From a plasmid: a DNA stretch of 64,000 bases. Positions 28,778 through 58,025 of the stretch are shown here, piece after piece. The translations under genes were made by a program, and so were the position numbers. Positions within the stretch are counted from its first letter, which is position 1. Each line of letters opens with the position of its first letter. Where the stretch lies: sequence record NZ_CP049149.1; one strand, given 5' to 3'. Under the pieces are notes generated by a model. The model saw only the letters and a program-made list of their open reading frames with translations, was not told the origin of the DNA and ran no database searches.

Positions 28778-29357
28778 TATACATTAGATAAGGTTCAAGT
28801 TCACTTTCAACGAGAAAGTAAACCATATCCAGATTCATGTAGACGACCTTATAATAGGTAATCGGGTATTTTTGCTGCATACGTCGAGATGCTCTTGCAG
28901 CTTCTTCGATCAGGCCTTGTATCATAACGATGTTGAGAGTAAAGGCTGACGCTACGCGAGTGACACGCATCATGATGTCGCTCATTTTTACCCGATTTAT
29001 TATACGTTTAGCAATATACTGGGAGATGAACGCGTTTGCGCCCATACGGCTGCCCAACTTTGCATCTGAGTAATGAAGCTTATCGTTAATCGCTTTCTTA
29101 CCCGCATCATCTAGTTTCTCATAGAAATCACTGATCACCATCGTAACCAGTTTCCTGACCGGTTCTTCATTCGATGCAAGATCTTTGAACGCTCTCATAA
29201 ATCGCTCGGTTTCATACTCATTACGTACTTTCATCTCGCGACCAAAGGCGCCTGACCCTTCAGCCGTTCTTACAATGGTTAAATAAAGCCCTTGTGGAAC
29301 AGCCGCCAGCCCGTCAACAATTCCTTTAGCTACTAGTTTTGCATCCATAAAATCCAT
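28713..29357 (-). CDS. hypothetical protein (214 aa), minus-strand island
   Basis: ORF opposite to the surrounding transcription. Confidence 0.4.
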   Translation of the reverse strand: MDFMDAKLVAKGIVDGLAAVPQGLYLTIVRTAEGSGAFGREMKVRNEYETERFMRAFKDLASNEEPVRKLVTMVISDFYEKLDDAGKKAINDKLHYSDAKLGSRMGANAFISQYIAKRIINRVKMSDIMMRVTRVASAFTLNIVMIQGLIEEAARASRRMQQKYPITYYKVVYMNLDMVYFLVESELEPYLMYIESHPVQCKGIENEICKLLAK

Positions 29358-29619
29358 CTCACGAAATATGCCGATTTTGTAGGTTATCAAAACTGTATTG
29401 CTGAATAGCTAACCATCATTCTATTTCAGAAAATTCCCAGATCGTTGAACTAAGCAGTGTAGATTTTAATGACTCTGAGTGTTTAATACGCTACATAAGA
29501 CCATCCATAACCAGCACCCAAAAAACGCGTCAGAATGCATTTCCTTTGCAAATTCTGGCGCGTTTTCTTTTGTTTGCGATTTGCTGTGCCAAATGAAACA
29601 ATAGGTAAGCAGTTACCTA

Positions 29620-30225
29620 ATGGAAAGAGCAATGATTGCAGCTGAAAAAATCAAAAAGCGAGAGCGAGATGCCTCTCTTCGAGACCTTTGGCGCACTCCC
29701 AAATGGTTGTTTATCGCCATCCAACGATATATAGGCGCCGAGTTCGATGTGGACGTCGCCTGCAACAAGGATAACGCGTTACTGCCCAACTACATCGGCG
29801 TTGAACGTGATGCCCTGAAAAGCAGCTGGGGTGAGCCTGGCACCGTGGCATTTCTAAACCCGCCCTACTCCCGGATATCTCCTTGGATCGACGCGGCCAT
29901 TCGGGAGCAGGCGCGTGGCGTAACGACAGTCATGCTGATCCCACAGTCCCTCGATACCCAATGGTATGAACGCGCCACTGAGTGCGCCAACGAGACCGTT
30001 ATTCTGTCTGGCGGCCGTGTGGCGTTTGTGGAGCCGGATGTCGAGCTGGGGCTGGTGGAGGTCAACGTGAATCCCGGTGGCAGTATGCTGGTCATCTTCC
30101 GTGGGTTTTGTCAGGAAGCTGGGCATGTCATCAGCAAGATACCGCTGGCGGTGATGAAAAAGCTGGGTGGTTATGATCCTGCCAATGTCATCAGAAAGAA
30201 AAGACCAGTTAAGAAGGCAGCTTGA
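29620..30225 (+). CDS. dam: phage-type DNA N6-adenine methyltransferase (Dam family)
   Basis: FLNPPYS catalytic motif. Architecture of the phage Dam_MT family. Confidence 0.75.
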   Translation: MERAMIAAEKIKKRERDASLRDLWRTPKWLFIAIQRYIGAEFDVDVACNKDNALLPNYIGVERDALKSSWGEPGTVAFLNPPYSRISPWIDAAIREQARGVTTVMLIPQSLDTQWYERATECANETVILSGGRVAFVEPDVELGLVEVNVNPGGSMLVIFRGFCQEAGHVISKIPLAVMKKLGGYDPANVIRKKRPVKKAA

Positions 30226-30249
30226 TACCAGTCTGAGAGTGTTTCAGAA

Positions 30250-30308
30250 CCTGCTTCCGTATATATAAATAACTAAGTACTAATTATTAATATATACAGA
30301 AACAGGCT
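30250..30308. repeat. long inverted-repeat hairpin element, copy 1 (degenerate)
   Basis: cctgcttccgtatatataaataactaagtactaattattaatatatacagaaacagg. Homologous to 58318-58372, with similar flanks extending to about 130 bp. Confidence 0.7.
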
Positions 30309-30424
30309 TTTAAAGTCTGTGTTTCTGAACCCACTCCCAGACCGATTTACACCTCCAGAACTCTCTGGAACCCCTCTCCAGACGCTCTAGAATCGTTTTT
30401 AAAGACACAGTAAGGAAAACTATC

Positions 30425-30655
30425 ATGGCATACCCGACGAACGTCGTAGCGCTCGTTGAGAGCGATTTTCTGGCCAAAGCCCGTGACATGATGAAAGATC
30501 GCGAAAAGGCTTTCAGTCTGTACGAATGGTCACTCAAATGCCTGCACGCAGGCGAGCATCGCGAGTTGCTGGAGCAGCTCTTAGGCGAACTTATCAATGA
30601 GGTGTTTGCACTCAATGTCCAGCTTCATGGGCGAGATAATAACCAAACAGTTTAA
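30425..30655 (+). CDS. hypothetical protein (76 aa)
   Basis: ORF. Confidence 0.3.
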   Translation: MAYPTNVVALVESDFLAKARDMMKDREKAFSLYEWSLKCLHAGEHRELLEQLLGELINEVFALNVQLHGRDNNQTV

Positions 30656-31240
30656 TAGGTAAGTACAAACTATTTTAAGCCGTGATCGCCAGTGATAAAA
30701 TCTCCGCGCTGGCAGATGTATCTGCCAGCTCGACCTGATGGGTGGGGGATAGCGTCACTGGCGTCAGGTTTAAAAAAGCCCACTACCAGCGTAGAACCGG
30801 CACCGTTTAGGGGTTGGGGAAGGGGGAACCAAAGTGGGCAGAGACAAGGGTCACTTTATGATTGTCGAGTCTGGGATGTTTCGAGAGGTTGAATCCAGTA
30901 CTCCCCTTCATAGAGTGTGGGAAGATCTCGGTTCTGGGGTGCTGTCATCCATAACTTCCCAAGCCTAAGCTGGCAGTAGACTTAGGTCATAACTTTTCAG
31001 GTTATGTAACGACCAGGTTGGTGAGGAATTTTTGTACTCACCTCCCTGGGAGAGTATTACCTGAAAAGACAACCTCTCACTTCGTTCGAGGTGAACTTCA
31101 CTCACTTCGTTCGTTCAGTTCAGGGGATTTAACCCCTGTTCTGGGAAGTAAGTTTTTTTATTAATTTAAATACTTTACACGCACGCGTGCGCACACGCGC
31201 GAGGAAAAAAATCGTCGCGGCGCGCGTTTCTGGAGCCACC

Positions 31241-31834
31241 ATGACGACGAAGACACCAGCCCGACAAAAAACTGGCTGCCGGCCAAAGTCCAAACGAAAC
31301 CATCCCCAGACCCGATTCAAAACTCCCGCAGTCGACTTCAATCCCCAGCTTAAAACCGTAAAAGTGTTCAGTGACGGCTCCTGCCTCAAAAATCCGGGCG
31401 GGCCTGGTGGCTACGGCATTGTTCTCCAGTATCGCGATGAAGAGCGCGAGCTTTCTGATGGCTTCCACAGCACCACCAACAACCGCATGGAAATGATGGG
31501 CGCGCTGATGGCTCTGGAGCGGCTCAAGTACCCCTGTAACGTCATTCTGTATTCGGACAGCCAGTATCTCAAAAACGGCATGACGCTCTGGATGAAAGGC
31601 TGGAAGCGCAACGGCTGGGTGACGTCAGAGAAGAAGCCAGTGAAGAATGTTGATTTGTGGAAACGACTCGATGCAGCGGCCAGTCGACATAACGTTCGCT
31701 GGCAATGGGTCAAAGGCCATGCCGGACATCGCGAGAATGAGATCTGCGACCGGCTGGCAAAGATAGCTGCTTTCGCCGCAGCGGATACCCCACACAAACG
31801 AGATATCGGTTTTTTGGCTCAAAATGATAAGTAG
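31241..31834 (+). CDS. rnhA: ribonuclease HI
   Basis: [21 protein letters not shown] ... SDSQYL ... [12 protein letters not shown] match RNase HI catalytic motifs. Confidence 0.8.
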
Positions 31835-31977
31835 GTATTTACCTATCATATTAAATCAGGTATCTTATCCATCGTCAGGATGACGAAGCGTCGGTAAGGC
31901 GCTGTTCCACGGATGGAACGCCCAAAGGCGGCTGGCAATGCCAGCCGCAACTCTTTCTGACATTGAATGGATTTCAC

Positions 31978-32454
31978 ATGGCACACCAAACGCCTCTCAC
32001 TTCTTTCAAAAAGCGCCCCCGTTCAATACGCCTTGCTTTGGCTGAGTTGTTTAGCGGCCGTGTTTCCGCACGTCTTGCGCAGCTTGAAGAGCGGGTGTTT
32101 GACCTGGAGGTGCGGGCTAATGCCCAGGCCACCACGATTGCCAATCTGGGGACGATTATCGCCGTCGATAAGGCAGGCGATTCCGCCAAATCCCGGAAGC
32201 ACACAGGGAAAAGCAATGGAAAATTTTCAAAGAAAGCGTCTGATGCCAATGGCCTACGCGCTAATTTTGGTTTCTCTGGCCGCGGCAGCAGTTCCAGCCG
32301 GTCAGAGCCTGTTGATACCGGATTCAACCACTACCACCACACCATCGTCGACGACACGCCTTCCAGAGAAAGCGTCTGCCACTCTGGATGGGATGTCTCT
32401 GGACACGATTCCGGGTCGTCCTGCGATTTCGGATCTTCCTCCTGCTGCGACTGA
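31978..32454 (+). CDS. hypothetical coiled-coil protein. An alternative-frame ORF (31967..32467) encoding a signal peptide plus Thr-rich segment overlaps it.
   Basis: Two almost coextensive ORFs in frames 1 and 2. Which one is real is unresolved. Confidence 0.3.
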   Translation: MAHQTPLTSFKKRPRSIRLALAELFSGRVSARLAQLEERVFDLEVRANAQATTIANLGTIIAVDKAGDSAKSRKHTGKSNGKFSKKASDANGLRANFGFSGRGSSSSRSEPVDTGFNHYHHTIVDDTPSRESVCHSGWDVSGHDSGSSCDFGSSSCCD

Positions 32455-32463
32455 GATGACGGC

Positions 32464-32661
32464 ATGAGATTTAGTTTTCAGAAGACTTTCACGCTGATGG
32501 TTGGACTTTGTGTCCTTCTGCTCGGCGGTTGGGTCATGAATCTGTTGAAGCTGATCGCCAGCGGAGATCTGCATTCTCACGCCGGGATAACACTGGCCCG
32601 CGTCGTGGGGGTCTTTCTGGTGCCGGTTGGCGGCATCCTCGGCTTTTTTAACGCTGAATGA
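32464..32661 (+). CDS. small membrane protein (65 aa, two TM helices)
   Basis: LMVGLCVLLLGGWVM and VVGVFLVPVGGILGFF. Confidence 0.35.
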   Translation: MRFSFQKTFTLMVGLCVLLLGGWVMNLLKLIASGDLHSHAGITLARVVGVFLVPVGGILGFFNAE

Positions 32662-32715
32662 TTTTCAGGGTTGCTTAAACAATTTGTTAAATCACTTAAC
32701 TAATAGGGAAAACAC

Positions 32716-33141
32716 ATGTTAGGTTTTTTAAAAAAGAAAACGCGTAAAGCGGTTGTTGAAGTGAAAAAGATGGAGAACCGCGACGCTGTAGAGGCGACCG
32801 TCTGGGGTGCCTACATGATCGCATACGCTGACGGCAACTGTGATGCCAAAGAGATCGCCATTCTTGAAAAAACCATCGCGGCGCTGCCAGCATTCTCTCC
32901 GTTCGCAGGCGAAATCGCGCAGATGAGCAGCAACATTCGCGCGCGTTATGAGGCATCTCCGCGCTCTGCCAATGCCCAGGCTCTGCGTGAGCTGGGTGAC
33001 GTAGCCGGTACGCCGGAAGCTGTAGATGTGCTGTGCCTGTGCATCGACATTGCAGATCAGGATGGCATCGGCGAAGAAGAAGAGATTGTGCTTAAGAAAA
33101 TCGCACAGGCGCTCCAGCTCTCTCTGGATGCGTACATCTAA
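32716..33141 (+). CDS. TerB-like domain protein (tellurite-resistance TerB fold), putative
   Basis: Helical pattern YMIAYADGNCDAKEIAILEK...LCLCIDIADQDGIGEEEEIVLKKIA resembles the TerB DG..E motif pair. Confidence 0.35.
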   Translation: MLGFLKKKTRKAVVEVKKMENRDAVEATVWGAYMIAYADGNCDAKEIAILEKTIAALPAFSPFAGEIAQMSSNIRARYEASPRSANAQALRELGDVAGTPEAVDVLCLCIDIADQDGIGEEEEIVLKKIAQALQLSLDAYI

Positions 33142-33423
33142 TGGCAGAGAAATTAAGGCTGGCCGTCGTCGCCATTCTTCTCGTGCTGGTCGTGCTGGTG
33201 GACTTCACTGGCAAACTGATGTCTATCGCGGCAGATGGCGTGTTGGTTGGATTGGCTATCTACTTTGCCCAACCTCTACTTAAAAAATCGAAGTGATCGC
33301 CGAGGGCCACCTGGCCCTCGATTCTTCTGGTTTAACCGTTATGACGCGTTTGCCCCCCTCTTCTGAATTGTCAGAATAAAGCCACCAAGAAAACAAATTA
33401 TTTTAACAATTAAGGAAAAACAC

Positions 33424-34002
33424 ATGTGTGATAAATGCACCGCCGCTAACGCTGAAGTAAAGAAGATCATTAATGAAGTCGGGGCTAAAAAACTCGTAGG
33501 GATGCTTGATTCTATAACTGGTCATGGTGACGCTCATCCGCTGGAACGCATCATGGCCATCGTCCAGGTCATGGACTTATTTGATGAACCAATGAAAATC
33601 CTGATGCTTGCTCGTCACTTTGGCGGGGCGTATGTGGAAGAGCATGAACGTGCCAATAAACTGCAGGCAACTCTGGACATGATGAGCGAACCAAAATGCG
33701 CGCCGGCGCCAGAGCTCTCCGGAGACAATATGGGCATTGAAAGCAAAGAGCGGGAGATCGCCAGCCTTAAGTCTTCTTTAGGCATGTTAATTACCGCCTT
33801 TAAACTAATGGCAACCCATAACGGTTTCAAAATGCCAGAGCTAACCGGCGATGAACATCCCGCTGCTATTCGCCAGCTACTTGGTGCCATGACGGATAAT
33901 ATGGATGAAGCGAAGAGCCCTATCGAAGATATGATGCGAGAACTTGCCCACCGCCACGATCTAAATGACCAGCCGCACAAGATGCAGCAAGTCAGCCACT
34001 GA
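33424..34002 (+). CDS. hypothetical protein, paralog A1 of 42062..42631
   Basis: About 45% identical along its length to the ORF at 42062 (MC..C start, KCAP, REIA.LKSS, FKMPE, DMMREL.HRHDL..QPHK). Confidence 0.55.
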   Translation: MCDKCTAANAEVKKIINEVGAKKLVGMLDSITGHGDAHPLERIMAIVQVMDLFDEPMKILMLARHFGGAYVEEHERANKLQATLDMMSEPKCAPAPELSGDNMGIESKEREIASLKSSLGMLITAFKLMATHNGFKMPELTGDEHPAAIRQLLGAMTDNMDEAKSPIEDMMRELAHRHDLNDQPHKMQQVSH

Positions 34003-34130
34003 ACCTGAAATAGCAAGGGGGCGAGAGCCCCCTTCCCCTCCTCCGTAGCCCTCTGTATAGATCTTTTACGCCTTTTCTTATCTGAGATAATAAAACCAAT
34101 AGGAAAACAAATTGTTTATATGGTGGGATT

Positions 34131-34346
34131 ATGAGTGCTGCGCTTTCTGTCCTTGAGTCTTTTGCTTCGAACACCGGTATCGACCACAGCAAAGAGATGA
34201 ACGTCATCCATGCAATCGTGGCCGAGTGCGAGAAAGGGATCGCGTTCATGCACCAGGTTCACGACTTCACTTATGGCGACGAACGTCACTGGAATAAGTG
34301 TTTAAGATTTGTACTACGTACATTGGAAGTGGAAATTATTTGGTAG
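34131..34346 (+). CDS. small hypothetical protein, paralog B1 (71 aa)
   Basis: The N-terminus MSAALSVLESFASNTGIDHSKEM matches the truncated ORF at 42751. Confidence 0.4.
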   Translation: MSAALSVLESFASNTGIDHSKEMNVIHAIVAECEKGIAFMHQVHDFTYGDERHWNKCLRFVLRTLEVEIIW

Positions 34347-34407
34347 GGATATAAGATCATATCCCTAAGCTCTTTTAAGAAAAAATTTCTTAATAACCTA
34401 ATGTAAT

Positions 34408-37400
34408 TTAAATCCTTCCTCCAACCCCTTTAAATTTTTCGATAAACGCCCCAATTTTTTGGAATACGGTCTGCTTTTTCGTTTTGTACTGAGGATTCAG
34501 TGGACTGAGTTTTGGTAGCGTCTCATTTAACTCCGTCCCATTTTCGGTAGCATATTCCCGTTTGAGTGATGTACGGATATAGCGCCTTGCCGCCTCTTCA
34601 TTGAGGTTTTCTTCCTTAATCAACGCTTCCGCTTCCTGTTGCTGTTCACGCTGAGCATAGGTAAAGAATGCATCAATGATACTGGCCTTATCCGGCATGT
34701 CATCAAGGTTAGTTTGCTGAATAAAGTCAACAATCAGACCTTCTTTGGCACGGTTGCCCAGACTTGACCGGATTAAGCGTCGGACCTCTTCAGTCAGGGC
34801 TTCTTTACCCTTTTTCTGACGGTTGTGGTCAAAAATCAGGCCCAGAATGTAGTCCAGGTTAATCTCTTGCGACTTGAGCAGGTCAATTTCAAACACCACG
34901 TCATCCCAGTCCGTGGTTGATGTATCCCTGTCGTTTGCTGCTTTTTCACGTCGCTGCCAGTCCCGGATATCATTGTAAGCTGAGCGGTAGTCCTGAACTT
35001 TACGTTCGGCAGGGAGGCGAATGGTTTGTAATTCAGCAAATTTTTCATCATCCACGTAGTGCTCTGCTTTAAAGGTTTCTACCGCTTCCGGGTCACTAAT
35101 ATCAACCTTCTGCAGGGCTTTCAGCGTGGCAAATTCATCGTAGTTTTGCAGGATGTTTTCTGCCCGCAGATATTCACCAAACAGTTTGACGAAGGCTTTT
35201 TTCTCTTTTTCACTGTCGATACTGGCAGGGTCAGGGAAGCGCTGCTCCAGCTCCGAAACAATAGACATAAAACCTCGTTTAGCTTCGCCGGTTGCCGCAT
35301 CGCTAAAGCCCTGCATGTACTCTTCGTAGCTTTTTTCCAGTACCACATTCTTGGTGTTTTTGTCGCCAAAAAGTGTAATGGCATCAATGGTGGGACGCTC
35401 CAGGTCCCTGAAAGTCACGATATTGCCGAAGGTTTTGGTTGCATCATAGATACGGTTGGTGCGTGAGAATGCCTGCATCAGACCGTGATAACGCAGGTTT
35501 TTGTCAACGAACAGAGTATTGAGAGTCGGAGCATCAAAGCCAGTCAAGAACATTCCCACCACGATGAGAAGGTCAATATCCTGATTTTTCACTCGTTGAG
35601 CTAAATCGCGGTAGTAGTTCTGGAAACCGTTACTGTCGGTGCTGAAATTGGTTTTAAAGTGATTGTTATAGTCATCAATGGCTGAATCCAGGAATTCCTT
35701 TGCGCTGCTGTTCATTGCACTGGTATCAAAACTTTCGTCGGTAATATCACCAATGGCGCTTTGCTCTTCATTAGCAGCAAAAGAGAAGATAGTTGCAACC
35801 CGAAGGCGTTTATAGCTGCCTGATTTTTTTGCTGCTTCTTCCTGTAGTACTTTAAACGTCGAGTAATAAGCTTTTGCCGCTTCCACACTGCTAACTGCTA
35901 ACATGGCGTTAAAGCCCTTAGCTCCCGGGAAGGTTCGGTGCGTTTTCTGACGGAAGTTATTGAGAATGTATTGCGTTATTTCCTGGATACGCAGTGGGTG
36001 TAAAAATGCCTGTTGGTTTTCAGCCGCGCTGAGTTTTTTCTCATCAGTTTCCGTTTCAAGAGACTTAAACTGTGGGCGGACATCGTTATAGTCCACCTTA
36101 AACTTCAGCACTTTTTCATCACGAATCGCATCAGTAATGACGTAAGAATGTAATTCACGCCCGAAGACGCTGGCGGTGGTTTCTGCCCCCAGTGCATTTT
36201 CCGGGAAAATAGGCGTACCAGTAAAACCAAACTGATAAAAGCGTCTGAATTTCTTTTTGAGGTTTTTCTGGGCCTCACCAAACTGGCTGCGGTGACACTC
36301 ATCAAAGATAAACACCACCTGCTGCTGATAGACGGGCAGGTCAGCTTCGGCTTTCATCAGATTATTGAGTTTCTGAATGGTTGTGACGATAATTTTGTTA
36401 TCGTCCTTATCCAGGTTTCTTCTGAGGCCTGCTGTATTATCCGAACCATTGACACTGTCCGGAGAGAAGCGCTGATACTCCTTCATGGTCTGGTAATCGA
36501 GGTCTTTCCTGTCGACCACGAAGAAGACTTTATCGATAAAGTCCAGCTCAGTAGCCAGACGTGCGGCCTTAAAGCTGGTCAGGGTTTTTCCTGACCCTGT
36601 GGTATGCCAGATAAATCCACCGCTTTCGGGTTTTGACCAGTTCTTCGCTTTAAAAGAGCTGTTGATTTTCCAGAGAATGCGCTCGGTGGCGGCAATCTGA
36701 TAGGGGCGCATGACGAGCAGCGTCTGGCTGCTGTCAAACACGCTGTAATTAAACAGAACATTCAGCAGAGTATGCTTCTGGAAGAAAGTGGCGGTAAAGT
36801 CCTTCAGGTCCTTAATCAGAGTGTTATCCGACTTCGCCCAGTTCATGGTGAAATCAAAGCTGTTTTTATCCCGCTTAGTGGTACTGGCAAAGTACCGGGT
36901 ATCGGTTCCGTTAGATATCACAAACAGTTGCAGGTATTTAAACAGAGAGTTGTCGCTGTTAAAGCTTTCCTTACTGTAACGGTGTATCTGGTTAAAGGCT
37001 TCACGAATCGCCACGCCGCGCTTTTTGAGTTCGATTTGCACCAGCGGCAGGCCGTTGACCAGAATCGTAACATCATAACGGTTAGCGTGTGAGCCGGTCT
37101 GTTCAAACTGCTGAATGACCTGCACCTTATTGCGCAGCAGGTTCTTTTTATCTATCAAATAGATGTTTTCCAGACGACCATCATCAAACGTAAAATCACA
37201 GATATAGTCGATATGGATTTTACGGGTTTTGTCCAGGCTGCTGTCACTGGGGCTGTCCAGATATTGCTCTGCGAAGCGCCGCCATTCACTTTCGTTAAAC
37301 ACCACACCATTAAGACGCTGAAGCTGGTCCCGCACATTCGCCAGCATCGCAGTCGGTGACTTAACGGAGATAAACTCATAACCCTGATTAAGAAGATCCT

Positions 37401-37524
37401 GAATCAGCGCCCGCTCAAGGTCCGATTCGCTCTGGTAGCTGTCACCGGTATCCATAACTTTTGTGTATTTATCAAGGACGATAAAGTTATTGGATTCAGC
37501 AATAGTGTGTGTTTGATGAGTCAT
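34408..37524 (-). CDS. hsdR: Type I restriction enzyme R subunit (Type IC, EcoR124-like; 1038 aa)
   Basis: SF2 motifs TGSGKTLTS and [10 protein letters not shown]. The ~1038-aa length is what I recall for EcoR124 HsdR (from memory). Downstream of hsdM-hsdS on the same strand. Confidence 0.85.
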
Positions 37525-37645
37525 AGCGCATCCTTTGTGCCGCCTGGCAAGGGCCGGAAGGGAGTTAAGAGTGACTTCCGGCGTGTAAAAAATAGTCTAT
37601 ATACTGACCGGGTGTTAAGGTGGCCCGATCGGTAGCAATGGTCAA

Positions 37646-38914
37646 TTAATTACTGACAGTTTCAGGTTTCGGGAAACTGAAAAGTAAATCACGGTAGTAT
37701 TCGTATTGTTTCTGGCGCAACTCGATTTCACGCGGGAGACCTTCAGTGATGGAGTTGGTCAGTGTGTCGAATTTATCCAGAATCCGAACGATTTCAGACT
37801 GGATGGCAAGGGATTTTTCCGGATTGTCCGGGCAGGGGATTGGGATTTTCAGTTTGTTTAAAACGGATTGTGTTTGGCTTGGTACTCCTCCTGCTTGGTT
37901 CATTTCGCCAAGGCCAACCGTCGTTAAGAAGTAGTAAAGATACTTTGGCCTAATTTGTGCTTCATCAATTTCCGTATAAAAAATGGTGTCAACGGTCCAG
38001 AATGGAACATCGATGAAAAATAAATTACCAAGCGAGCCTTTTCTCGGAATTAAGACTGAAGGCTTATTATAGGCATAGGTATCTACATATCGCATGATTC
38101 CACCTGAACCGTAAACAGGGAACTCGCCTTCGCTGAGAGATTTATGATCCTTGCCATTTCTGATGCGAGCCAAATCACTCAATGGCAACCACTCAACCTC
38201 AACCCCATCCAGCAATTTTTCCAGATAAATAGGTTTTTCCTGCTCCTCATCAAAACTCAGCAACTGGTCGCGATAGTAGTTGTACTGCTTTTTGCGCATG
38301 GTAAGTTCAGCTGTAAGTTCAGCTGTAAGTTCAGCTGTAAGTGCAGTAAACTTATCCAGAATCCGGACGATTTCAGACTGGATAGCAAGGGACTTGTCCG
38401 GTTTATTCGGACAAGGTATAGGGATTTTGAATCCTCCCATTACTGCTGAGTTCAAGTTGTTGATGGTTGAGCTATTCAACATTTCATCGAGATATTTTTG
38501 AAAAATATCACTTGTTAAAACGTGAAATAAATAACGCGGATTTAATTTTTCATCGCATCTGACAACACCCATAAATCCGCCAAAGTAGTAGTCAATATCT
38601 GATTCAATGTAAGCAACTTTTCCAACATGTTCACGGCTACCACTTGCTGCGCTTATCAGTATGTCGTCCTTATATAGTTTTTGCGAATCCTTTACTTTGG
38701 TGTCAAACTTCACCAGTTTGACATCATTTAAATTTAAACAATTACTAGACAAAGTGATATTGTTAGCACGAAGGACCCTGTAACCTTGACCATCTGCGCT
38801 TTCATTCGATTTGCTGTAAGTTAAACCACGTATATATTTCGCGACTTCTCCCAGAGTCTTCCACTCAACAACAACTCCATCTAGCAATTTGTCTAGATAA
38901 CTCAGCTTGCTCAT
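37646..38914 (-). CDS. hsdS: Type I restriction specificity subunit with central TAEL x3 repeat
   Basis: Duplicated conserved regions ([14 protein letters not shown] twice). Two TRDs. Central [13 protein letters not shown] encoded by 12-bp tandem repeats at about 38290-38340. Confidence 0.85.
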
Positions 38915-40467
38915 GACTGCACCTCACGGCCTTCAATTTCAGCCACAATTACATCGATATCCTTACGTAACTGATCGATTTTGCCGACGGTGATTTTCAG
39001 TTCAGTATTCAGTTCGGAGATATCAATTATTTCTCGGGTATTCATGGCTTCGACGTAGCTGCTGACTGACAGGTTATAGTTATTGGCGGCAACTGTTTCA
39101 TGAGGGATAGTTTTAGCGAGGTGGTCAATATCCGCTTTGCTGGCAAAGGCCTGCATAATCTGTTCGATATGACCATCAGTCAGGATATTGTTATTGGTTT
39201 CTTTCTTGAACAAACCGCTGGCATCAATAAACTGAACACTGGTGTCAGTTTTATGTTTAGACAGCACCAGAATGTTAACGGCAATGGTGGTGCCGAAGAA
39301 CAGGTTTGGCGCGAGTGAAATCACCGTTTCAACATAGTTGTTGTCGACCAGGTACTGGCGGATTTTCTGCTCTGCACCGCCACGGTAGAAAATACCGGGG
39401 AAGCAGACTATTGCTGCACGTCCTTTAGCAGACAGGTAGTTCAGCGCATGTAGTACAAACGCAAAGTCAGCTTTTGATTTCGGGGCCAGTACGCCAGCTG
39501 GAGCAAAGCGCTCATCGTTAATCAGGGTCGGGTCGTCACTGCCAATCCACTTAACCGAGTACGGAGGGTTAGAGACAATCGCATCGAACGGTTTTTCATC
39601 GCCAAAGTGAGGCTCAGTCAGGGTATTCCCCAGTCTGATATCAAATTTGTCGTAGTTGATGTTATGTAGGAACATGTTCATACGCGCCAGGTTAAAGGTT
39701 GTATGATTTATCTCCTGACCATAAAAACCTTCTTCAATGATATGGTTATCAAAGTGTTTTTTCGCCTGAAGCAGCAGTGAACCGGAGCCAGCTGCAGGGT
39801 CATAGATTTTGTTGACGTGAGTCTGACCGTGCATCGCAAGCTGAGCAATCAGCTTAGAGACGTGCTGAGGTGTGAAGAACTCCCCGCCAGACTTACCGGC
39901 ATTTGCCGCATAGTTAGAAATCAGGAACTCGTAGGCATCACCAAACAGGTCAATCTGGTGCTCGTTAAAATTCCCCAGTTTTAGCCCCTCAACGCCTTTG
40001 AGAACGGCGGCAAGACGGGTGTTTTTGTCTTTGACTGTGTTACCCAGTCGATTGCTGGTCGTATCGAAATCGGCGAACAGGCCTTTGATGTCGGCCTCCG
40101 ACGGGTAGCCGTAGGCAGAGCTTTCTATAGCGACGAAGATACTGTTTAAATCAGCATTTAGCCTGTCGTTGGTGTTCGCTTTAGCGGCAACGTTGCAGAA
40201 CAGCTGGCTCGGGTAGATGAAATAGCCTTTAGTCCTGATGGCATCGTCTTTGATGTCATCGGTAATGATGCTGTCATCAAGTGCTGCATAATGTATGCTC
40301 TCATCCCCTGCTTCCATGTAGCTGGAAAAATTCTCACTGATGAAGCGGTAGAAAAGGGCACCGAGTACATACTGTTTAAAATCCCATCCATCTACGGAGC
40401 CTCTGACATCATTGGCAATGGCCCAGATTTGGCGGTGTAGCTCTGCACGCTGCTGAAGGCTTGTCAT
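38911..40467 (-). CDS. hsdM: Type I restriction-modification N6-adenine methyltransferase subunit
   Basis: [11 protein letters not shown] motif IV and an AdoMet motif ([10 protein letters not shown]). Stop overlaps the hsdS start. Confidence 0.85.
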
Positions 40468-40699
40468 TTTGTATCCTGTTGTATGATTCTTAAGTACTGT
40501 TATTGGCCCGATTTTATCGCAATTTCATATTGATGACAGGCTTTGTATGTCATACGTTGCACTGAGAGTTCGTTTGCCCGGTTGTGTAGCCAACACTCTT
40601 TCAGTCAGGCCAGTAGAAACGTTGTGCTGACGATAAATACTGAAGCCCCAATACTATCGGGGCTGAACGTTCAGTCGGTGAGAATTTCTTCATCCGTAT

Positions 40700-41900
40700 C
40701 CATTGTGGATGGTGATCAGGGCGAGAGCGTGAACAAATTGTTAAATTGACTTCAATTCAGCCAGCCCTGCGTCCAGTACCTTTTCCAGATATGGGCTGCT
40801 CATGCCCGCAAATTGCTGCTTCTTCCGTAAGCTTGCCTTACGGCTGGTTTCGGCTCGCAGCATGTTTTGCGCCATGTGTCGTGCACAGGCCAATATTTGA
40901 GGGGCATCACCTCGATATATCTGGCAGGCATCCTCATTCATCACGACATCCAGTACCCAATGCAGTTGGTTTTCGATGCCCCAATGACTGCGCACCCCGT
41001 TGGCAAATTGCTCTTCGGTTAGTTCAGCCGAGCTGATGTAGTAACGGTACTCTAGCGATTCATGCCCCTTGCTGTCGCACCGATAACCGATGGCAACCCC
41101 CAAGCTGGATAAACCTTTCCAGGCCGGGAACTGCTCGGCTATCGCCCCAACTGGCATGACATGGTACTCACGGATCTCTATTCGCCCCCGTGAGCGCTCT
41201 ATCTTGGCCTGATGGCTACCTTCTCGGGCCTGCAGCGCCATGGCCTCACGTACTGCGCGATATAGGGTTTCTTGGTTGCCTTTGACTGCCAGTAGATAGT
41301 CGCCTCCCTTATCGACTATCTTGGCAGCAATCTCGGTTTGGCAACCCATAGCATCAATGGACACCAAACAACCACGGACATCCAGCAACACCAGTAATTC
41401 CGGAATAGCAGTGATTTCATTGGACTTAGTGTCTGTCTTGACCTGTCCCAGCACCACGCCATTGGCGCTGGCAAACGCGCTGACCATGTGGATGGTGGAT
41501 TGCCGATCCTCACGGTTATATGAACTACGTAGAACCTTGCCATCAATAGCAATCAATTCACCACTGACGCGTTTGTGGACGACTTTCATCCATTTGAGGA
41601 AACAAGCCTGAAATTCGTCTGGCGCCAGCCGGGATATCACTCTGGCAATGGTGTCGTGCACAGGAAGTCCGTTGGGAAACAAGCCTTTATCCTGGAGCCA
41701 GCGGCAATGGGCCTGACCGAAGTCTTCAATATCTTCCCAGCCTTCACATCCACCAATGACGGCGCATACCGTCAGGAACACGATGTCGAACAAGGGGTAA
41801 GCAATTTTTGCCGACTGACGCGGGTCCTGAAGATCAGCAAAAATTTCAGCAAAGGCATCCAGTTGCATTGATGTACTCCCAGAAAAGGAAGTATCAGATC
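40700..41900 (-). mobile_element. ISAs1-family insertion sequence (H-repeat-associated transposase type). Boundaries approximate.
   Basis: The transposase ORF 40741..41868 aligns closely with E. coli H-repeat/ISAs1 transposases (CAVIGGCEGWEDIEDFGQAHCRWLQ..., IPVHDTIARVISRLAP, SNEITAIPELL, DAMGCQ, GGDYLLAVKGNQ). Confidence 0.75.
40741..41868 (-). CDS. ISAs1-family DDE transposase (375 aa)
   Basis: See the mobile element entry. Confidence 0.8.
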   Translation of the reverse strand: MQLDAFAEIFADLQDPRQSAKIAYPLFDIVFLTVCAVIGGCEGWEDIEDFGQAHCRWLQDKGLFPNGLPVHDTIARVISRLAPDEFQACFLKWMKVVHKRVSGELIAIDGKVLRSSYNREDRQSTIHMVSAFASANGVVLGQVKTDTKSNEITAIPELLVLLDVRGCLVSIDAMGCQTEIAAKIVDKGGDYLLAVKGNQETLYRAVREAMALQAREGSHQAKIERSRGRIEIREYHVMPVGAIAEQFPAWKGLSSLGVAIGYRCDSKGHESLEYRYYISSAELTEEQFANGVRSHWGIENQLHWVLDVVMNEDACQIYRGDAPQILACARHMAQNMLRAETSRKASLRKKQQFAGMSSPYLEKVLDAGLAELKSI

Positions 41901-42061
41901 ACAACTGATCCCCAGGTCAAAATGTACTGTGCTCGGTTAAAAAACGTTCATGATCTTGCCCTGCCCTGCTCTCCCTTAAACACAAACTTTCTTGTCATTA
42001 CGTATAATGTGATAATAAGACATATAAGAAAACATTTTGTTTAAACTAATAAGTAAATGAC

Positions 42062-42631
42062 ATGTGTCTGAATTGCAAAGATAAATACGCAGAGATGAAT
42101 GCAAAATTTGAAGAAATGGAAGTCGTGGATCTGGTAAAAATGCTTGGTATAGTGCGCGGCACAGAGCAGTCTTCAGTGCCTGAAAGACTGATTACTGTCG
42201 TTAAATTCGCTTCAATTTTTGATGACCCAATGGAAATCATTGGCCTGGCGCACCAACTAGGTGTTCACTATCTGGCAGAGAAAGATCGCGCCGATAAAAT
42301 GCAATCCACACTGAATATGGTCAGCGAGCAGAAATGCGCACCGAGCGCCAGCAAAACTGACGAAACTGTCGCCAGTAAAGACCGCGAAATTGCCGGTCTG
42401 AAATCTTCGATGGCCATACTTATTTCTGCCTTTAAGTTGATGACCACCCAGACAGGTTTCAAAATGCCTGAGATGAACAATGAAGATCCGATGGCTGTGC
42501 GTGAACTGTTGGGCGCGCTGGCCGACCAGCTGGACACCAAGAAAAGCCGCCTGGAAGACATGATGCGCGAGCTAACCCACCGACACGATCTGACTAAACA
42601 GCCGCACAAAGCGCAGCACGCGAATCACTAA
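42062..42631 (+). CDS. hypothetical protein, paralog A2 of 33424..34002
   Basis: See paralog A1. Same promoter element and terminator architecture. Confidence 0.55.
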   Translation: MCLNCKDKYAEMNAKFEEMEVVDLVKMLGIVRGTEQSSVPERLITVVKFASIFDDPMEIIGLAHQLGVHYLAEKDRADKMQSTLNMVSEQKCAPSASKTDETVASKDREIAGLKSSMAILISAFKLMTTQTGFKMPEMNNEDPMAVRELLGALADQLDTKKSRLEDMMRELTHRHDLTKQPHKAQHANH

Positions 42632-42750
42632 TCGCTTGACTCAATGACGGGGGCGAAGCCCCCTTTTCATGCCTGTAAATCCTCCTACTATGCCTTTTGA
42701 GCTCTGAAAAATAACACCAATAAGAAAACAAATTGTTTAATGCTTTTATT

Positions 42751-42840
42751 ATGAATACAGCCCTTTCTATTGTTGATGACATTAGTCTGAACACTGAAAT
42801 CGACTATCGGCAGGAGATGGGTGTTATGGAGCCAGTCTAG
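42751..42840 (+). pseudogene. truncated copy (29 codons) of small paralog B
   Basis: MNTALSIVDDISLNTEIDYRQEMGVMEPV then stop, against the 71-aa 34131 ORF. Confidence 0.4.
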
Positions 42841-43005
42841 ACGACGATACCATTCTGCTATTCTTCAAACACGGAAACATCCACTTTCTGGTTGGCTCTC
42901 AAGCTACTAGGTTATTCATGTCCGTAGGTGGAAATAAGTGTGCCAACAGATGTTATGGTAAATAAGAGTGATGTGAAGCTATGAATCATGGGGAGAAATA
43001 CACGG

Positions 43006-43491
43006 ATGGAAGTCGAGATATGTGGTGTTGCAAATGTGCCGGAACTAGCCCATCTTTTTGTTGAAATGGAGGATTATTACTTCGGTCGCGGCGTTGTCAG
43101 CTATGAGGATATGAGCGCTTATCTTGCTGACAAAGTATTCTCTACTTATTCAGGCGTTACGGTTGTTGGTGCTCGTAAAAAAGGAGAGCTTGTTGGATTT
43201 GCCACTTTTTCGCTGATGTTCCCCGCGCCGCTTTGTTCCGGTCAGGCATTTATGAAGGAGATCTTTATATCAGAAGCGGTACGAGGCCAAGGTGTCGGTA
43301 AATCGCTAATTAGGTTTATCGCAAACTTTGCCCTCAAACACGGTTGTTCACGCCTTGACTGGACTGCGGAGAAGTCCAATCCGAAAGCCGGAGAGTTTTA
43401 CTTGTCCATTGGTGCCACTCTAATTGAAGAAAAACAGTACTTTAGGCTGGAGGGGAAGGATCTCGAGACGTTTTCTTCACTCGCTGAGTGA
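43006..43491 (+). CDS. GNAT-family N-acetyltransferase
   Basis: Motif A RGQGVGKSLIRF. Size about 161 aa. Confidence 0.6.
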   Translation: MEVEICGVANVPELAHLFVEMEDYYFGRGVVSYEDMSAYLADKVFSTYSGVTVVGARKKGELVGFATFSLMFPAPLCSGQAFMKEIFISEAVRGQGVGKSLIRFIANFALKHGCSRLDWTAEKSNPKAGEFYLSIGATLIEEKQYFRLEGKDLETFSSLAE

Positions 43492-43582
43492 GTATCAGAA
43501 TAGGGCGCACTTTTGATGTTATGATTATTTCTCGTCAATTTGTTAATAGTTAACGTAAAGATACGGAGAGTGGAATAAACAA

Positions 43583-43987
43583 ATGACAATTTTAGTGACG
43601 ATACAGAGCCAACTTGTTGTTGGTGAGGCGCAGGTGATAAAGAGCTTGGCTCCTGAAGGGATGTTGGCAGCCGTTTTCGAGGACGATGGTGAAACCGGGT
43701 ATTTCTACGCTCTTGATGAGTCTGTCGACGGCAACGCCATTCAAGACGCAGTACATATTTACAACGTAGAAGATATTGCGGATGGAGATATCCCTTCTGA
43801 CGTTAAAATCGGCTGGTCTCAAGATAGTCAGAAGTGCGTGCTTCTGATCAACGGTTATCCCTACGGGGTGTTCGATTTCGTGGGCAAAAACGGGTATTGC
43901 AGAAGTGGCTTTCCTCCACCGATTAATGATACATGGTCGGCATCCGGTCATGAGTGGAGCGACGCAGTGGATGATTTTTTTCGATGA
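43583..43987 (+). CDS. hypothetical protein (134 aa)
   Basis: ORF with an RBS. Confidence 0.4.
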   Translation: MTILVTIQSQLVVGEAQVIKSLAPEGMLAAVFEDDGETGYFYALDESVDGNAIQDAVHIYNVEDIADGDIPSDVKIGWSQDSQKCVLLINGYPYGVFDFVGKNGYCRSGFPPPINDTWSASGHEWSDAVDDFFR

Positions 43988-44277
43988 ATCCAAGCAAGCC
44001 TAGCATCTGCCGTTATGCTTCTAATATTAAGCACTTATATGGGAGGTCGCTTCTTGCATCGATATATCTATACTGTTTGCGACATTTCGGTTGAGTGTTT
44101 GATAAGGTTCCATTGATAATAAAACCCAAATGGTAAAGACCGTTCGTAAAGTAAGGCCAATCTTGTGGCCTTAAACAAATTGTTTTCACCCACTAGTTAT
44201 TATCCCATCATTTAAAATTGCCCTTTTCTGAACGCACGGATACTGTTTGTATATACAGTATTCAGGGTGGAAAAAAG

Positions 44278-44544
44278 ATGGGCGGCAAAGACAGCAACTA
44301 CCAGATCGTTTATCGCGGCGAGACGCTTCAGTGCCTCAAGCCTGGGCAATATGTCTTCTTTCAGCGGCTGAAAGAGTATGGCGGAGGATTCTGGTTGGGA
44401 AAAACCTACGAAGATGGCTTTGAGTTTGTGCTGGAGTGGCCAACCTCTCTGAGTGAGGGGCTGCTGTATCTGATGTCACTTGAGCGCATGGAGGCGAACT
44501 ATCTTGAGTTTGTTAATGACATCGATGATTTTAAGCTGACCTGA
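44278..44544 (+). CDS. hypothetical protein (about 88 aa)
   Basis: Start taken at the ATG after ggtggaaaaaag. Confidence 0.35.
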   Translation: MGGKDSNYQIVYRGETLQCLKPGQYVFFQRLKEYGGGFWLGKTYEDGFEFVLEWPTSLSEGLLYLMSLERMEANYLEFVNDIDDFKLT

Positions 44545-44611
44545 CAACCTCAGGCATCTTTTTAATGCCGTATGTGATTTGAGATAATAACACACACAAG
44601 AAAACAATTTG

Positions 44612-44863
44612 TTTAAGGAGGTTCCCCTGTTCGGAACCACGGGCGAAATCATTGAGAAGCTGGAGAACTATCCGGAAAACAATTTTCTTCTGATGGTCAT
44701 GTGGCACAAGTAAGGCGTAAGCTAGGTTCGACCGGATCTGACAGACGAGCAGTGCGTACAGGTGATGCGTAAAATCAAGGACTTCCATGATGGGAATGTG
44801 GGCGTGAATTGGGATGTTATCGCTAACACGGCCGATATCCTGTTTCTGAAGGAGAAGGCGTGA
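44612..44863 (+). pseudogene. ORF interrupted by in-frame TAA and TAG codons four codons apart
   Basis: The frame reads ...NNFLLMVMWHK stop GVS stop VRPDLTDEQCVQVMRKIKDFHDG...FLKEKA. Follows a promoter element and AAGGAGG but has no ATG. Confidence 0.35.
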
Positions 44864-45180
44864 TGCTGACATTCAACGAATCCTATAAGACGGCTGTGAT
44901 CGGCACCGCCCATGTCACGGGCAAAGACTTTTAGCTGCTGCCTGTCGTGTGCTTTGACCCATTGACCGATCGCGGACTGAATTGGGTACACGGCACACAG
45001 TACGGCTGGATTGTTCGTGCGGGAATTCGAGGGAATGACTGGAGGGAAGAATTGCATGAGTACGGCATTTCGAAAGAGACGATCTCAAACACACAGACCA
45101 TACTAGATGCCGGATATGACGCGGTACATTTTGACAGTGATGTGGAGCTGGTGGATGGGATACCGGCATGGGATTGGTAA
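44864..45180 (+). pseudogene. ORF with an in-frame TAG at codon 24 (MLTFNESYKTAVIGTAHVTGKDF stop LLPVVCFDPLTDRG...)
   Basis: Read directly. ATG overlaps the upstream stop. 23 codons, amber, then 81 codons in the same frame. Confidence 0.35.
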
Positions 45181-45193
45181 GGGAGAGAAAAAG

Positions 45194-45388
45194 ATGACGG
45201 CAGAAGACGTGATTAATGATGTGCTGGTGGAGCTGGGTAAGCTACCTGATCATCTCCTCATAGCCACCGTATTTGACAACATACCTGCTGAGTTAAAGGC
45301 CCTGGCCAATGAGTGGGGATGGATGGATACGGAAGTTAGAGAGCAGCTATATGCGATAGCCTGGCGGATTGTTAACGCGCAACAATAG
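45194..45388 (+). CDS. hypothetical protein (64 aa)
   Basis: ORF with an RBS (gggagagaaaaag). Confidence 0.3.
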   Translation: MTAEDVINDVLVELGKLPDHLLIATVFDNIPAELKALANEWGWMDTEVREQLYAIAWRIVNAQQ

Positions 45389-45749
45389 CCTGCAACGCGT
45401 TGACATTGGTGGTCACTAATTGAGGATTTCTATAAGAACTCGTTGATCGCCCTCTTCCCTACTCTCCAACTTCATACACTCCAGGCGCGGCAAGGCTTTT
45501 ACGCACATAACACCCACAAGAAAACAAATAAATAATACATCAATGAAAAGTCAACGCTTTACCCTGATTTGGTCCAAAAAGTTGACGTTTTGCCATGTCA
45601 CTTCTTATATCCGTTAAGCAGCGTACCAGAGACCAACACCCTGCGACGAAAACGCCAAAAACGACTCCTGATACCACCACAAAACAGACATGCTCAGAAT
45701 GGCTCTCGTTGCGTTTAATGAGCATATAAACAAATTGTTTTAGGCATTA

Positions 45750-46340
45750 AGAAAACAACAAAACAAGATAACGAAGAAAAGGAACTGCCATTACCCACAC
45801 CCAGGCAATACCCACCTCTTCCTGCCAGGCTACCGAAAAGACCAACCTCATTGCCCTAGGCTACCGACCCCATGAAGCAAACCTCGAGCACTACCAAAAA
45901 GCGACAAGAGAAAGGCAATTTCTCTGAACGCCATTCCCCCAATACACGGAAGAGATACCCGGGAAGAAACTCCAGACCAGAACAGTCCCCGGCGTCATAT
46001 CGTTTACCCACTCTTACCCCGAAAGATAACGCAAATTCCTGATTAGCAGGGAACGCCATTACTTCACATAAGGAGAACTACAACAGACCAGAAATCACAT
46101 CACCCACACTTCCACCTCTCAAGGTAAACGAAAGGAAAAGCGCACACGCCATTACTCCATACACAGAGAAGAACTATCCCCAAAACGAAGAATACAGACC
46201 AGAGGAAAACCACAAGAAAACCATCTCTACAACATCTGCAAAACCACTTACCGGCAGAGAGAAGAAAGTCGCCTTTTCTCCCATACGAATGGTCACCGTA
46301 TAGAGCGCTAATAAGAGAGATACGAGTCCCCATAAGAGAG
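45750..46340. repeat. ORF-free C+A-rich segment with degenerate ~100-150 bp tandem repeats (GCCATTMCYYC...AGACCAGAA units)
   Basis: Units starting near 45777, 45931, 46053 and 46149. No ORF of 60 aa or more on the + strand across 45390-46910. Confidence 0.5.
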
Positions 46341-46913
46341 GTTATTCGAGTCAGGAAAGAGCACAGATATAAGAGAGAGGGGATGGCGGGGGATCGCTCC
46401 CTTTCCCGTATTTATTCAAGTCATGATTTTATCCCCCGTAACATCCCTGCGGTCGAACGAGTGAAAGGGCTACCGCGAAAATCAATCGGGAGCGTCCCCG
46501 CAGGGGAAAGGCTGGCTGCCTGAGTGGAAACGGCTGGAGGTTTTTCGGGAAACGGCTGGGTTCCCGTCATGGAAAGGGGGCGTGTCGGTATAGAGACAAA
46601 ATGCCGCGGGGACGGCTGATTCTCTGGCGGTACACCGTTTGGTGCGCGGGTGGCTTTCTTCCCGCTGCGCGCAGCTGCTGATACGTATTCTGCCAGAGCG
46701 TTCGAGGGTCACAAGCTGTTTCAGTAGGTTTTAGGGAAGAGGAAAATACTGCTCACCAGCCCTGCGGTGCGCGTTGAGAAGAATAATGTAAAAAGCGCTC
46801 CCGATACGCTCCCGGATACTCACTACTTTTCCAGTTCTCCCCGATACAAAATGCTTTTTAGCCTATGTCTTATTGCGATAATAACACCAACGAGAAAACA
46901 ACGTGTTTAGACA

Positions 46914-47144
46914 ATGGAGAAAAACATGTACAAGCATTTGAACATCAGCATCACCCTTTGCGGAGAAGAGACATGTACTGACGAACTCCAGATCTCTCTG
47001 GATGACGTTATCCGCTCTGCGGATGTCGCTGGGCGCATTGGTACGTTGATTGGCGAAGGGTATCGCGAGGGCACGTTTGATTTTCATATCGAGGACAACG
47101 CAATGTCCGTCGCGTGGAACTGCACAACGTCAGAGTCCAGATAA
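46914..47144 (+). CDS. hypothetical protein (76 aa)
   Basis: Preceded by a perfect promoter-element copy. Confidence 0.4.
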   Translation: MEKNMYKHLNISITLCGEETCTDELQISLDDVIRSADVAGRIGTLIGEGYREGTFDFHIEDNAMSVAWNCTTSESR

Positions 47145-47156
47145 AGGAGGAAGACA

Positions 47157-47369
47157 ATGAATATGCCTGTGATTGTGGAAGTATGGAGCGTGGACTCGCT
47201 GGCCGAATGTCTTGATGGCGTAGGGCCAGCACTGACCCGTAAATTATGGTCGTTTGTACCAGCTAAGGGAGAGTCACCCAAAGGGAAGGATGTTTGGCAC
47301 CTGCTGACTGATGAAGAGAAGCGGGAGCTGGTGGCCGCAGTGAAAGAGGAGTTCCCTGACGAAGATTAA
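47157..47369 (+). CDS. hypothetical protein (70 aa)
   Basis: RBS aggaggaag. A terminator follows. Confidence 0.4.
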   Translation: MNMPVIVEVWSVDSLAECLDGVGPALTRKLWSFVPAKGESPKGKDVWHLLTDEEKRELVAAVKEEFPDED

Positions 47370-48847: not shown

Positions 48848-48849
48848 AT

Positions 48850-53245: not shown

Positions 53246-53247
53246 GC

Positions 53248-58016: not shown

Positions 58017-58025
58017 GGATTTGCC

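Follow-up and report, generated by a model that had tools for sequence, protein, structure and literature searches.

We analyzed a 64,000-nt stretch of plasmid DNA (sequence record NZ_CP049149.1; hereafter "the window"), which, as judged from sequence comparison, belongs to an ~108-kb SSU5-like phage-plasmid of Cronobacter sakazakii. In the accessory and defence slot of this element, two homologous gene units enclose a type I restriction-modification (R-M) system and an insertion sequence (IS) of the ISAs1 family, and the arrangement is probably a mosaic of two phage-plasmid lineages. The window is 96–99% identical to ~100–110-kb C. sakazakii plasmids annotated with portal, terminase, capsid, RepB and ParB genes. 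Likeness to phage SSU5 amounts to 73% identity over part of 41880–46500.

Both units follow one plan, consisting of a promoter box, a gene of ~190 codons, a GC hairpin, a second promoter box and a short open reading frame (ORF), and they are co-linear and in direct orientation on both sides of the R-M and IS cargo (Table 1). A preliminary description of the locus had listed these elements, and all of them are present at or near the places where it put them. The encoded proteins of 192 and 189 amino acids (aa) share 92 of 192 residues (48%; E 2e-62), and each of them matches phrog_5508 over its entire length (E 1.5e-98 and 2.4e-86). On the DNA level, the units are 59% identical over 847 aligned columns, the best local stretch reaching 73% over 99 nt. 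Homology of the two units is far beyond chance. The hairpins had been interpreted as terminators. Hairpins indeed exist in both units, but only that of unit 2 scores as an intrinsic terminator; the unit 1 hairpin has no T-run on its 3' side, and the terminator scan gave no call at 34017–34032. The gene of ~190 codons was found at 743 places in 733 plasmid records and is single-copy in at least 723 of these records. The exact unit 2 protein is present on at least 24 of the contigs examined and is listed by 111 index blocks. Searches of Pfam and PADLOC with the ~190-aa protein gave no match. An AlphaFold2 model of the 192-aa protein is all-helical and of mediocre confidence (pLDDT 66), and its comparison with PDB folds returned no match with E below 0.1. 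An anti-restriction role, which the acidic composition and the position beside a methylase might bring to mind, is a guess with no support.

The promoter boxes combine an extended -10 element (TGnGATAAT) with a palindrome, AGAAAACAA(A/T)TTGTTTA, located ~10 nt further downstream. In both units the palindrome stops 12–20 nt before the start codon. The box is not special to the two units: with up to two mismatches allowed, the window contains at least 14 copies where 0.02 would be expected, and the box is also found in the E. coli, Klebsiella and Cronobacter relatives. The box or operator sequence was not found in the literature searched.

Concerning the short ORFs, the preliminary description stated that the second one had been cut to 29 codons. 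This is correct, but truncation is not limited to this gene, since the first is a stump as well. Both represent 5' remnants of a gene for a DUF4942 DNA methyltransferase of ~560 aa, covering positions 1–53 and 1–28, respectively, of the 548 positions of phrog_6263, and neither includes the C-terminal methyltransferase domain of the full-length protein. In alignments, they correspond to the N-terminal part of the complete methylases of Klebsiella phage pJN2-26 and Escherichia phage Cyrano. The relatives L002, L004, L005 and L006 carry full-length DUF4942 genes, and among the matches listed of 818 plasmids matching unit 2, the ~190-aa gene is followed directly by the full methylase gene. The two stumps break at different points, namely codon 53 and ~codon 26. 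In stump 1, codons 1–53 are homologous to the methylase, and homology to an island-free relative stops at 34289; 18 unrelated codons and a stop follow. Stump 2 matches the N-termini of phrog_16000 and phrog_6263 up to ~codon 26 (~42827), its homology to plasmids with the full gene ending at 42819–42827. The idea that the stumps are kept as functional small proteins was rejected: the start codon of stump 1 (equivalents of 34131–34133) reads ATA or ATT in three of seven relatives (L005, L019, L021), the rest of the frame being open, which argues for a decaying remnant. PHROGs nonetheless holds the 71-codon stump as a family of its own with 71 positions, phrog_25525. A literature search on DUF4942 returned nothing useful.

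Table 1. Features of the slot and its surroundings; all positions are those of the window.
Feature	Position	Strand	Basis or remark
terB/tciA-like gene, left anchor	32716-33141	+	phrog_632/phrog_1470 matches for the anchor pair
DUF3927/tciB-like gene, left anchor	33141-33296	+	phrog_632/phrog_1470 matches for the anchor pair
Promoter/operator box 1a, 55 nt	33350-33404	+	Direct-repeat family D1 and motif scans; extended -10 TGTCAGAAT, then palindromic box AGAAAACAAATTATTTT
Unit 1 gene, 192 aa	33424-34002	+	phrog_5508
Unit 1 GC hairpin	34017-34032	+	Sequence; GGGGGC-GAGA-GCCCCC
Promoter/operator box 1b	34064-34118	+	Repeat family and motif scans; TGAGATAAT ... GGAAAACAAATTGTTTA
Unit 1 short ORF, 71 aa	34131-34346	+	5' stump of DUF4942 methyltransferase gene
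hsdR, 1038 aa, intact	34408-37524	-	Pfam HSDR_N, SWI2_SNF2, T1R_D3-like, EcoR124_C
hsdS, 422 aa, intact	37646-38914	-	Methylase_S; conserved regions align to EcoR124 S subunit
hsdM, 518 aa, intact	38911-40467	-	Pfam N6_Mtase, HsdM_N
DUF262/HEC-05 gene remnant	40671-40716	-	Last 46 nt (stop and 15 codons), cut by the IS
ISAs1-family IS, 1247 bp	40717-41963	-	Inverted repeat I2, exact junctions
IS inverted repeats, 18 bp	40717-40734 and 41946-41963		15/18 matching
ISAs1-type transposase, 375 aa, intact	40741-41868	-	Pfam DDE_Tnp_1_assoc (E 5e-31), DDE_Tnp_1 (E 3.6e-23)
Promoter/operator box 2a	41989-42043	+	26 nt right of the IS; TGTGATAAT ... AGAAAACATTTTGTTTA
Unit 2 gene, 189 aa	42062-42631	+	phrog_5508
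Unit 2 hairpin with T-run	42649-42663	+	GGGGGC-GAA-GCCCCC; called intrinsic-terminator-like
Promoter/operator box 2b	42685-42739	+	Repeat family and motif scan; palindromic box is a perfect AGAAAACAAATTGTTTA match
Unit 2 short ORF, 29 codons	42751-42840	+	Second 5' stump of DUF4942 methyltransferase gene
GNAT acetyltransferase	42988-43491	+	Pfam
DUF2251 protein	43583-43987	+	Pfam
Box sites, examples	560-576, 9315-9333, 33388-33404, 34102-34118, 42027-42043, 42723-42739		
Box sites, further examples	44599-44615, 46893-46909, 47478-47494, 49306-49322, 58407-58423		

Between the units, ORFs and Pfam matches agree with the earlier assignment of hsdM, hsdS, hsdR and an ISAs1 transposase, all on the minus strand. 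The order hsdM-hsdS-hsdR with a gap before hsdR characterises type IC systems, and the same order is seen here: hsdS overlaps hsdM by 4 nt and is followed by hsdR after a gap of 121 nt. HsdR aligns with HsdR of EcoR124I over residues 1–1038 of both proteins (2130 bits; Pfam EcoR124_C, E 3e-72), and HsdM aligns with the EcoR124 M protein over residues 1–517 (1081.6 bits), which is the similarity of R and M subunits looked for in a type IC system. In HsdS, the central and C-terminal conserved regions align with the EcoR124 S subunit, and the TAEL repeat is present. Assignment to a type I family is based on complementation, antibody cross-reaction and sequence (PMC3874165). Similarity of all three subunits to those of EcoR124 bears out the type IC assignment of the preliminary description, and by sequence the system is a member of the EcoR124 family that looks intact. 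By analogy, it would methylate a bipartite target and restrict unmodified incoming DNA of phages and plasmids.

EcoR124I and EcoR124II of plasmid R124, the type IC prototype, share with the system in the window the HsdR length, an end-to-end alignment and the gene order. HsdS of the window carries three TAEL copies encoded by a 12-bp repeat at 38301–38346 (repeat family D5), as does EcoR124II, whereas EcoR124I and the EcoR124 S subunit in the PDB carry two. In the EcoR124 family, two repeats result in a 6-bp spacer and three in a 7-bp spacer within the recognition site (PMC3874165). Following this rule, we predict a spacer of 7 bp for the allele with three TAEL copies and of 6 bp for an allele with two. 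In the alignment, neither target-recognition domain (TRD) of the window HsdS is related to its counterparts in EcoR124I, and therefore the half-sites should differ. The carriers are different, too: a phage-plasmid here and a conjugative plasmid in the case of EcoR124.

ISAs1 elements are ~1.2–1.5 kb in size and have short terminal inverted repeats. The element in the window agrees with this in size and ends and carries the transposase domains of the family, and its exact transposase is named 'ISAs1 family transposase [Cronobacter sakazakii]' in a source. Domains, inverted repeats and naming thus concur on the ISAs1-family element that had been proposed to be involved. It had also been suggested to search for inverted repeats and target duplications around 40700 and 41900; the repeats were found and a duplication was not, the flanks of the IS reading GTGGATGGTGAT and CCCTGCTCTCCC. 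The missing duplication is a property of this IS copy that would be expected at a recombinant junction, and it leaves the family membership unaffected. A literature search on target duplications of ISAs1 elements returned nothing useful. The IS is single-copy in the 64-kb window and rare in plasmids, related sequence being present in 12 PLSDB records, the best of which is an Aeromonas veronii plasmid (97%). A composite transposon, which takes two IS copies, was considered and rejected, as there is one copy in 64 kb and the left boundary of the cargo is a homologous crossover.

Comparison with other plasmids assigned different ancestries to the segments of the window. Positions 9000–33000 are 98–98.8% and positions 46868–64000 are 96.3% identical to C. 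sakazakii plasmids, while the best records from outside Cronobacter reach ~82–84% in the left arm and ~85–92% in the right arm. In the left arm, 28001–33287 is 98.3% identical to C. sakazakii pGK1025B_1. Identity to this plasmid is ~100% up to ~33150, and from ~33151 onwards identity is ~100% to the Klebsiella type, i.e. there is a clean switch near 33150; with pCsaCS931a as the Cronobacter reference, a mixed zone at 32916–33125 is seen instead. The left join is a homologous crossover at the terB/tciB boundary, at ~33130–33160. Further to the right, 32677–40716 is 92–96% identical to more than 400 Klebsiella plasmids, each of which carries a single unit followed by hsdRSM and DUF262. The block that appears to be imported measures ~7.6 kb (~33150–40716) and comprises the tciB-like gene, the 192-aa gene and its stump, hsdR, hsdS, hsdM and 46 nt of the DUF262/HEC-05 gene. 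Hundreds of SSU5-like phage-plasmids from Klebsiella carry this block in a single copy. The 192-aa protein is 96–99% identical to Klebsiella and JGI proteins, and in the Klebsiella lineage this allele of its gene is the one that accompanies the R-M island.

On the right side, the switch in ancestry coincides with the IS. The window equals Klebsiella plasmid L001 up to 40716, where L001 runs on into the DUF262 gene, the full version of which is HEC-05 of PADLOC (E 1.6e-229). The 46-nt remnant of this gene marks the block as being of Klebsiella-type origin. Klebsiella-type homology ends at 40716 and Cronobacter-type homology begins at 41964, which are exactly the outer ends of the 18-bp inverted repeats. 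The right join consists of the ISAs1-family IS with a Klebsiella-type left flank and a Cronobacter-type right flank. Beyond it, 41964–45200 is 99.5–99.6% identical to pCsaCS931a and to contigs L026–L029, in which the order is TerB, DUF3927, Mrr nuclease, unit 2, GNAT, DUF2251. The 189-aa gene is 99.5% identical to the pCsaCS931a copy and is the resident Cronobacter allele. The GNAT and DUF2251 cargo, which has the same order in pCsaCS931a and contigs L026–L031, stands where other lineages have the rest of the methylase gene. Judged by these alignments, the imported block replaced the Mrr-type restriction gene of the closest Cronobacter relatives. The displaced gene encodes a 321-aa Mrr_cat nuclease (L003 10932–11897; L026–L031 4834–5799). 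This protein also matches the nuclease end of ZorD and the PADLOC candidate PDC-S02, and it is a solitary restriction-type gene in the same slot.

Three types of relatives delimit the arrangement. Klebsiella SSU5-like phage-plasmids with hsdRSM and DUF262 (HEC-05), such as pE16K0288-2 (CP052264) and phage vB_KpnS_p4727, carry the same block at 92–96% identity, including the 192-aa gene, the 71-codon stump and the left breakpoint at methylase codon 53. They differ in having one unit, a complete DUF262 gene, no ISAs1 element and another second TRD of hsdS. Within this lineage, an 8.5-kb island of R-M and DUF262 genes stands between fixed anchors in place of a 6.2-kb stretch containing the methylase gene and small genes. 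The pCsaCS931a type (NZ_CP027108; contigs L026–L031) has unit 2, the 29-codon stump, GNAT and DUF2251 at 99.5–99.7% identity and the same backbone, but what separates the tciB-like gene from unit 2 is an Mrr-type nuclease gene instead of the imported block and the IS seen in the window. Finally, pCS1 of C. sakazakii NCTC 8155 (NZ_CP012254) carries Klebsiella-type unit 1, stump and hsdRSM in a Cronobacter backbone, and behind the cassette come another promoter box and methylase 5' end, which form a diverged second copy (~80% identity). Unlike the window, pCS1 has no IS, a right junction at the hsdM start, a full-length DUF4942 methylase and no second ~190-aa gene. In pCS1 (L005 2275–11166), a 219-nt direct repeat of ~80% identity brackets the R-M cassette; a 137-nt stretch (9260–9396) lies at the right junction. 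In aligned relatives the slot is thus occupied by an Mrr-type nuclease, a DUF262/HEC-05 gene, a full DUF4942 methylase or a type I R-M system, which justifies the earlier designation of this region as a variable defence hotspot. Defence systems including R-M have already been reported in SSU5-group phage-plasmids (bioRxiv 10.1101/2025.09.12.675607).

The junction is not confined to the window. The same succession of hsdM, IS and unit 2 was detected in 12 samples, comprising five NCBI assemblies and seven Logan assemblies of sequencing runs; these were found by exact-protein look-up alone. Exact 34-mers spanning both IS junctions and a 30-mer of the left IS end were absent from GTDB representative genomes, IMG/VR and JGI metagenome contigs. 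Several of the junction contigs, including three NCBI assemblies, are ~108 kb in size, two contigs span the whole two-unit structure, and one agrees with the window over 13.5 kb at 99.993% identity. Among the carriers, the core at 40468–45393 including the IS is 99.5–100% identical, while identities are 91–100% for hsdM, 95.6–97% for hsdR and ~94% for the backbone. Since the core is near-identical while hsdM, hsdR and backbone vary, the junction arose once and the neighbouring DNA kept recombining.

In the junction lineage, hsdS is represented by at least seven alleles, which combine different recognition domains. The window HsdS equals that of L017/GCA_047428785.1 (L017 12955–14211) except for the TAEL copies, which number three in the former (422 aa) and two in the latter (418 aa). 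Other carriers of the window allele include SRR11140585 and SRR25477665. The pair is the natural counterpart of the EcoR124I/EcoR124II switch. The allele sequences show that new hsdS variants arise through exchange of TRDs and through slippage in the 12-bp TAEL repeat.

A few further observations concern the surroundings. In contig L021 (SRR26913924), an SbcC-like AAA_23 gene at 8809–11275 adjoins the tciB-like gene, and the terB-like gene, the RNase H gene and neighbouring genes seem to be deleted. Right of the locus, a second patch at 45394–49226 is 96.6% identical to Klebsiella-type phage-plasmids, and thus the backbone is mosaic there as well. Over 45382–47940, pCsaCS931a and pCS1 align at only 71–77%; pCS1 is 99.4% identical again from 48350. 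The 193 nt at 45201–45393 match neither reference type. Comparison of the window with itself also revealed an ~110-nt direct repeat at 11371–11479 and 12602–12702 (73.6% identity).

We favor the following interpretation, to which we assign a probability of about 0.78: the R-M block stems from another, related lineage of phage-plasmids, and the IS marks where it was joined beside a resident gene pair, so that the structure reflects mosaic evolution and no tandem duplication. Two related phage-plasmids would have been co-resident in one cell and joined through the IS, either as a cointegrate or by crossover between IS copies at non-allelic sites. The joined product would then have been resolved by homologous recombination in the backbone. 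Both units would have been kept because one IS site lay downstream of a unit and the other upstream. As the right join is located upstream of the resident 189-aa gene and its stump, the recombinant carries two diverged, xenologous copies of the pair. Indeed, each unit is 94–99.7% identical to a single-copy unit elsewhere, and divergence between the two units is as large as between units of different phage-plasmid lineages. The suggestion of the preliminary description that recombination or the IS shaped the structure is well supported by the homologous crossover on the left and the IS at the ancestry switch on the right.

Several points weigh against this interpretation. A Klebsiella-type parent with the IS in DUF262 would read GGATGGTGAT-IS-GAATCTATTT, and a Cronobacter-type one carrying it upstream of unit 2 would read GCGCTATA-IS-CCCTGCTC; neither a parent with the IS at one of these sites nor the reciprocal product (Mrr gene, IS and 5' part of DUF262) was found, and none of the 12 PLSDB records of the IS is of this phage-plasmid type. 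Wherever the exact transposase was encountered, it lay at this single junction. Absence of a target duplication equally fits an adjacent deletion mediated by the IS. Moreover, the imported block is only 92–96% identical to any sampled Klebsiella plasmid, and thus the donor itself is unsampled. It need not reside in Klebsiella, because a comparable block, joined differently on its right side and without an IS, occurs in C. sakazakii pCS1. R-M activity, promoter function and spacer length are predictions.

For the junction step, the strongest competing explanation is that the IS deleted adjacent DNA in a larger hybrid. Here, the two-unit state would be older than the IS, as an unresolved heterodimer or larger hybrid, and the IS would have landed upstream of unit 2 and deleted DNA leftwards into DUF262. 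The single IS copy, the lack of a target duplication, the flank that ends inside a gene and the failure to find a parental plasmid with the IS all agree with this scenario, and the data do not separate deletion from recombination between IS copies. However, it needs an extra, unobserved intermediate containing both units and the intervening DNA, and it explains the neat homologous crossover on the left no better than the favored model. We consider it unlikely.

A further view attributes to the promoter boxes a double role: they would put the whole SSU5-type accessory slot under one repressor and at the same time serve as homology anchors for the exchange of defence cargo. The predicted operator would consist of the extended -10 element and AGAAAACAAATTGTTTA, and the cassette junctions would be footprints of anchor-mediated exchange and not accidents. 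It can be cited in favor of this view that replacements keep the box and the first 26–53 methylase codons, with two breakpoints, and that the cassette occurs in three junction contexts (Klebsiella type, pCS1 and the lineage of the window). Nevertheless, we regard the combined proposal as doubtful.

Microhomology offers another explanation for the right join, in which illegitimate recombination would have linked the IS end to Cronobacter-type DNA. The IS ends with CCCTG and the flank starts with CCCTG; at the right IS end (41959–41968) this motif is present once in the IS-free site and twice in the window, where one copy stems from the IS end and one from the target, and four times at the same junction in four relatives (L018, L021, L022, L023). 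The run could reflect slippage or be a trace of microhomology at the join. Yet a 5-bp match can be due to chance, the additional copies in the relatives look like later slippage, and the join lies exactly at the outer end of the inverted repeat on both sides, as expected from transposase action. Such an origin is therefore highly improbable.

The preliminary description had viewed the arrangement as a recent cargo insertion into a tandem duplication: the pair would have been duplicated in this element, R-M genes and IS inserted later, and the copies diverged thereafter. The co-linear units in direct orientation flanking the cargo are what such a history would produce. However, the copies are not each other's closest relatives, as they share 59% of nucleotides and 48% of amino acids while each is 94–99.7% identical to single-copy units of other lineages, and the stumps break at codon 53 and ~codon 26, respectively. 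In hundreds of Klebsiella plasmids, unit 1 is linked to the same R-M island with no second unit, which is the kind of relative that the preliminary description itself had named as evidence against its proposal. Inheritance of the arrangement over 12 assemblies also speaks against a private, recent event. Tandem duplication thus retains hardly any probability. An assembly chimera, in which two co-resident phage-plasmids were misjoined at a shared IS, would account for a repeat-sized element exactly at the ancestry switch, but it can be dismissed, given the same junction in 12 independent samples with diverged flanks and different hsdS alleles, three NCBI assemblies with ~108-kb contigs among them, and the contig that is 99.993% identical over 13.5 kb.

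The system and the processes described here are of known kinds: the R-M system is an EcoR124-family member with new recognition domains, and current understanding remains unchanged. The favored reading provides a clean, datable case of phage-plasmids trading defence cargo, in which an Mrr-type nuclease was swapped for a complete type IC R-M system. The swap took one homologous crossover and one IS junction, between lineages of different genera. The most useful by-products are the conserved promoter/operator box and the natural set of hsdS alleles. The latter, at least seven in number and including one pair that differs by a single TAEL, constitutes a natural test set for the drift of type I specificity on a mobile element, and it bears on the exclusion of phages and plasmids in C. 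sakazakii, a pathogen associated with milk powder.

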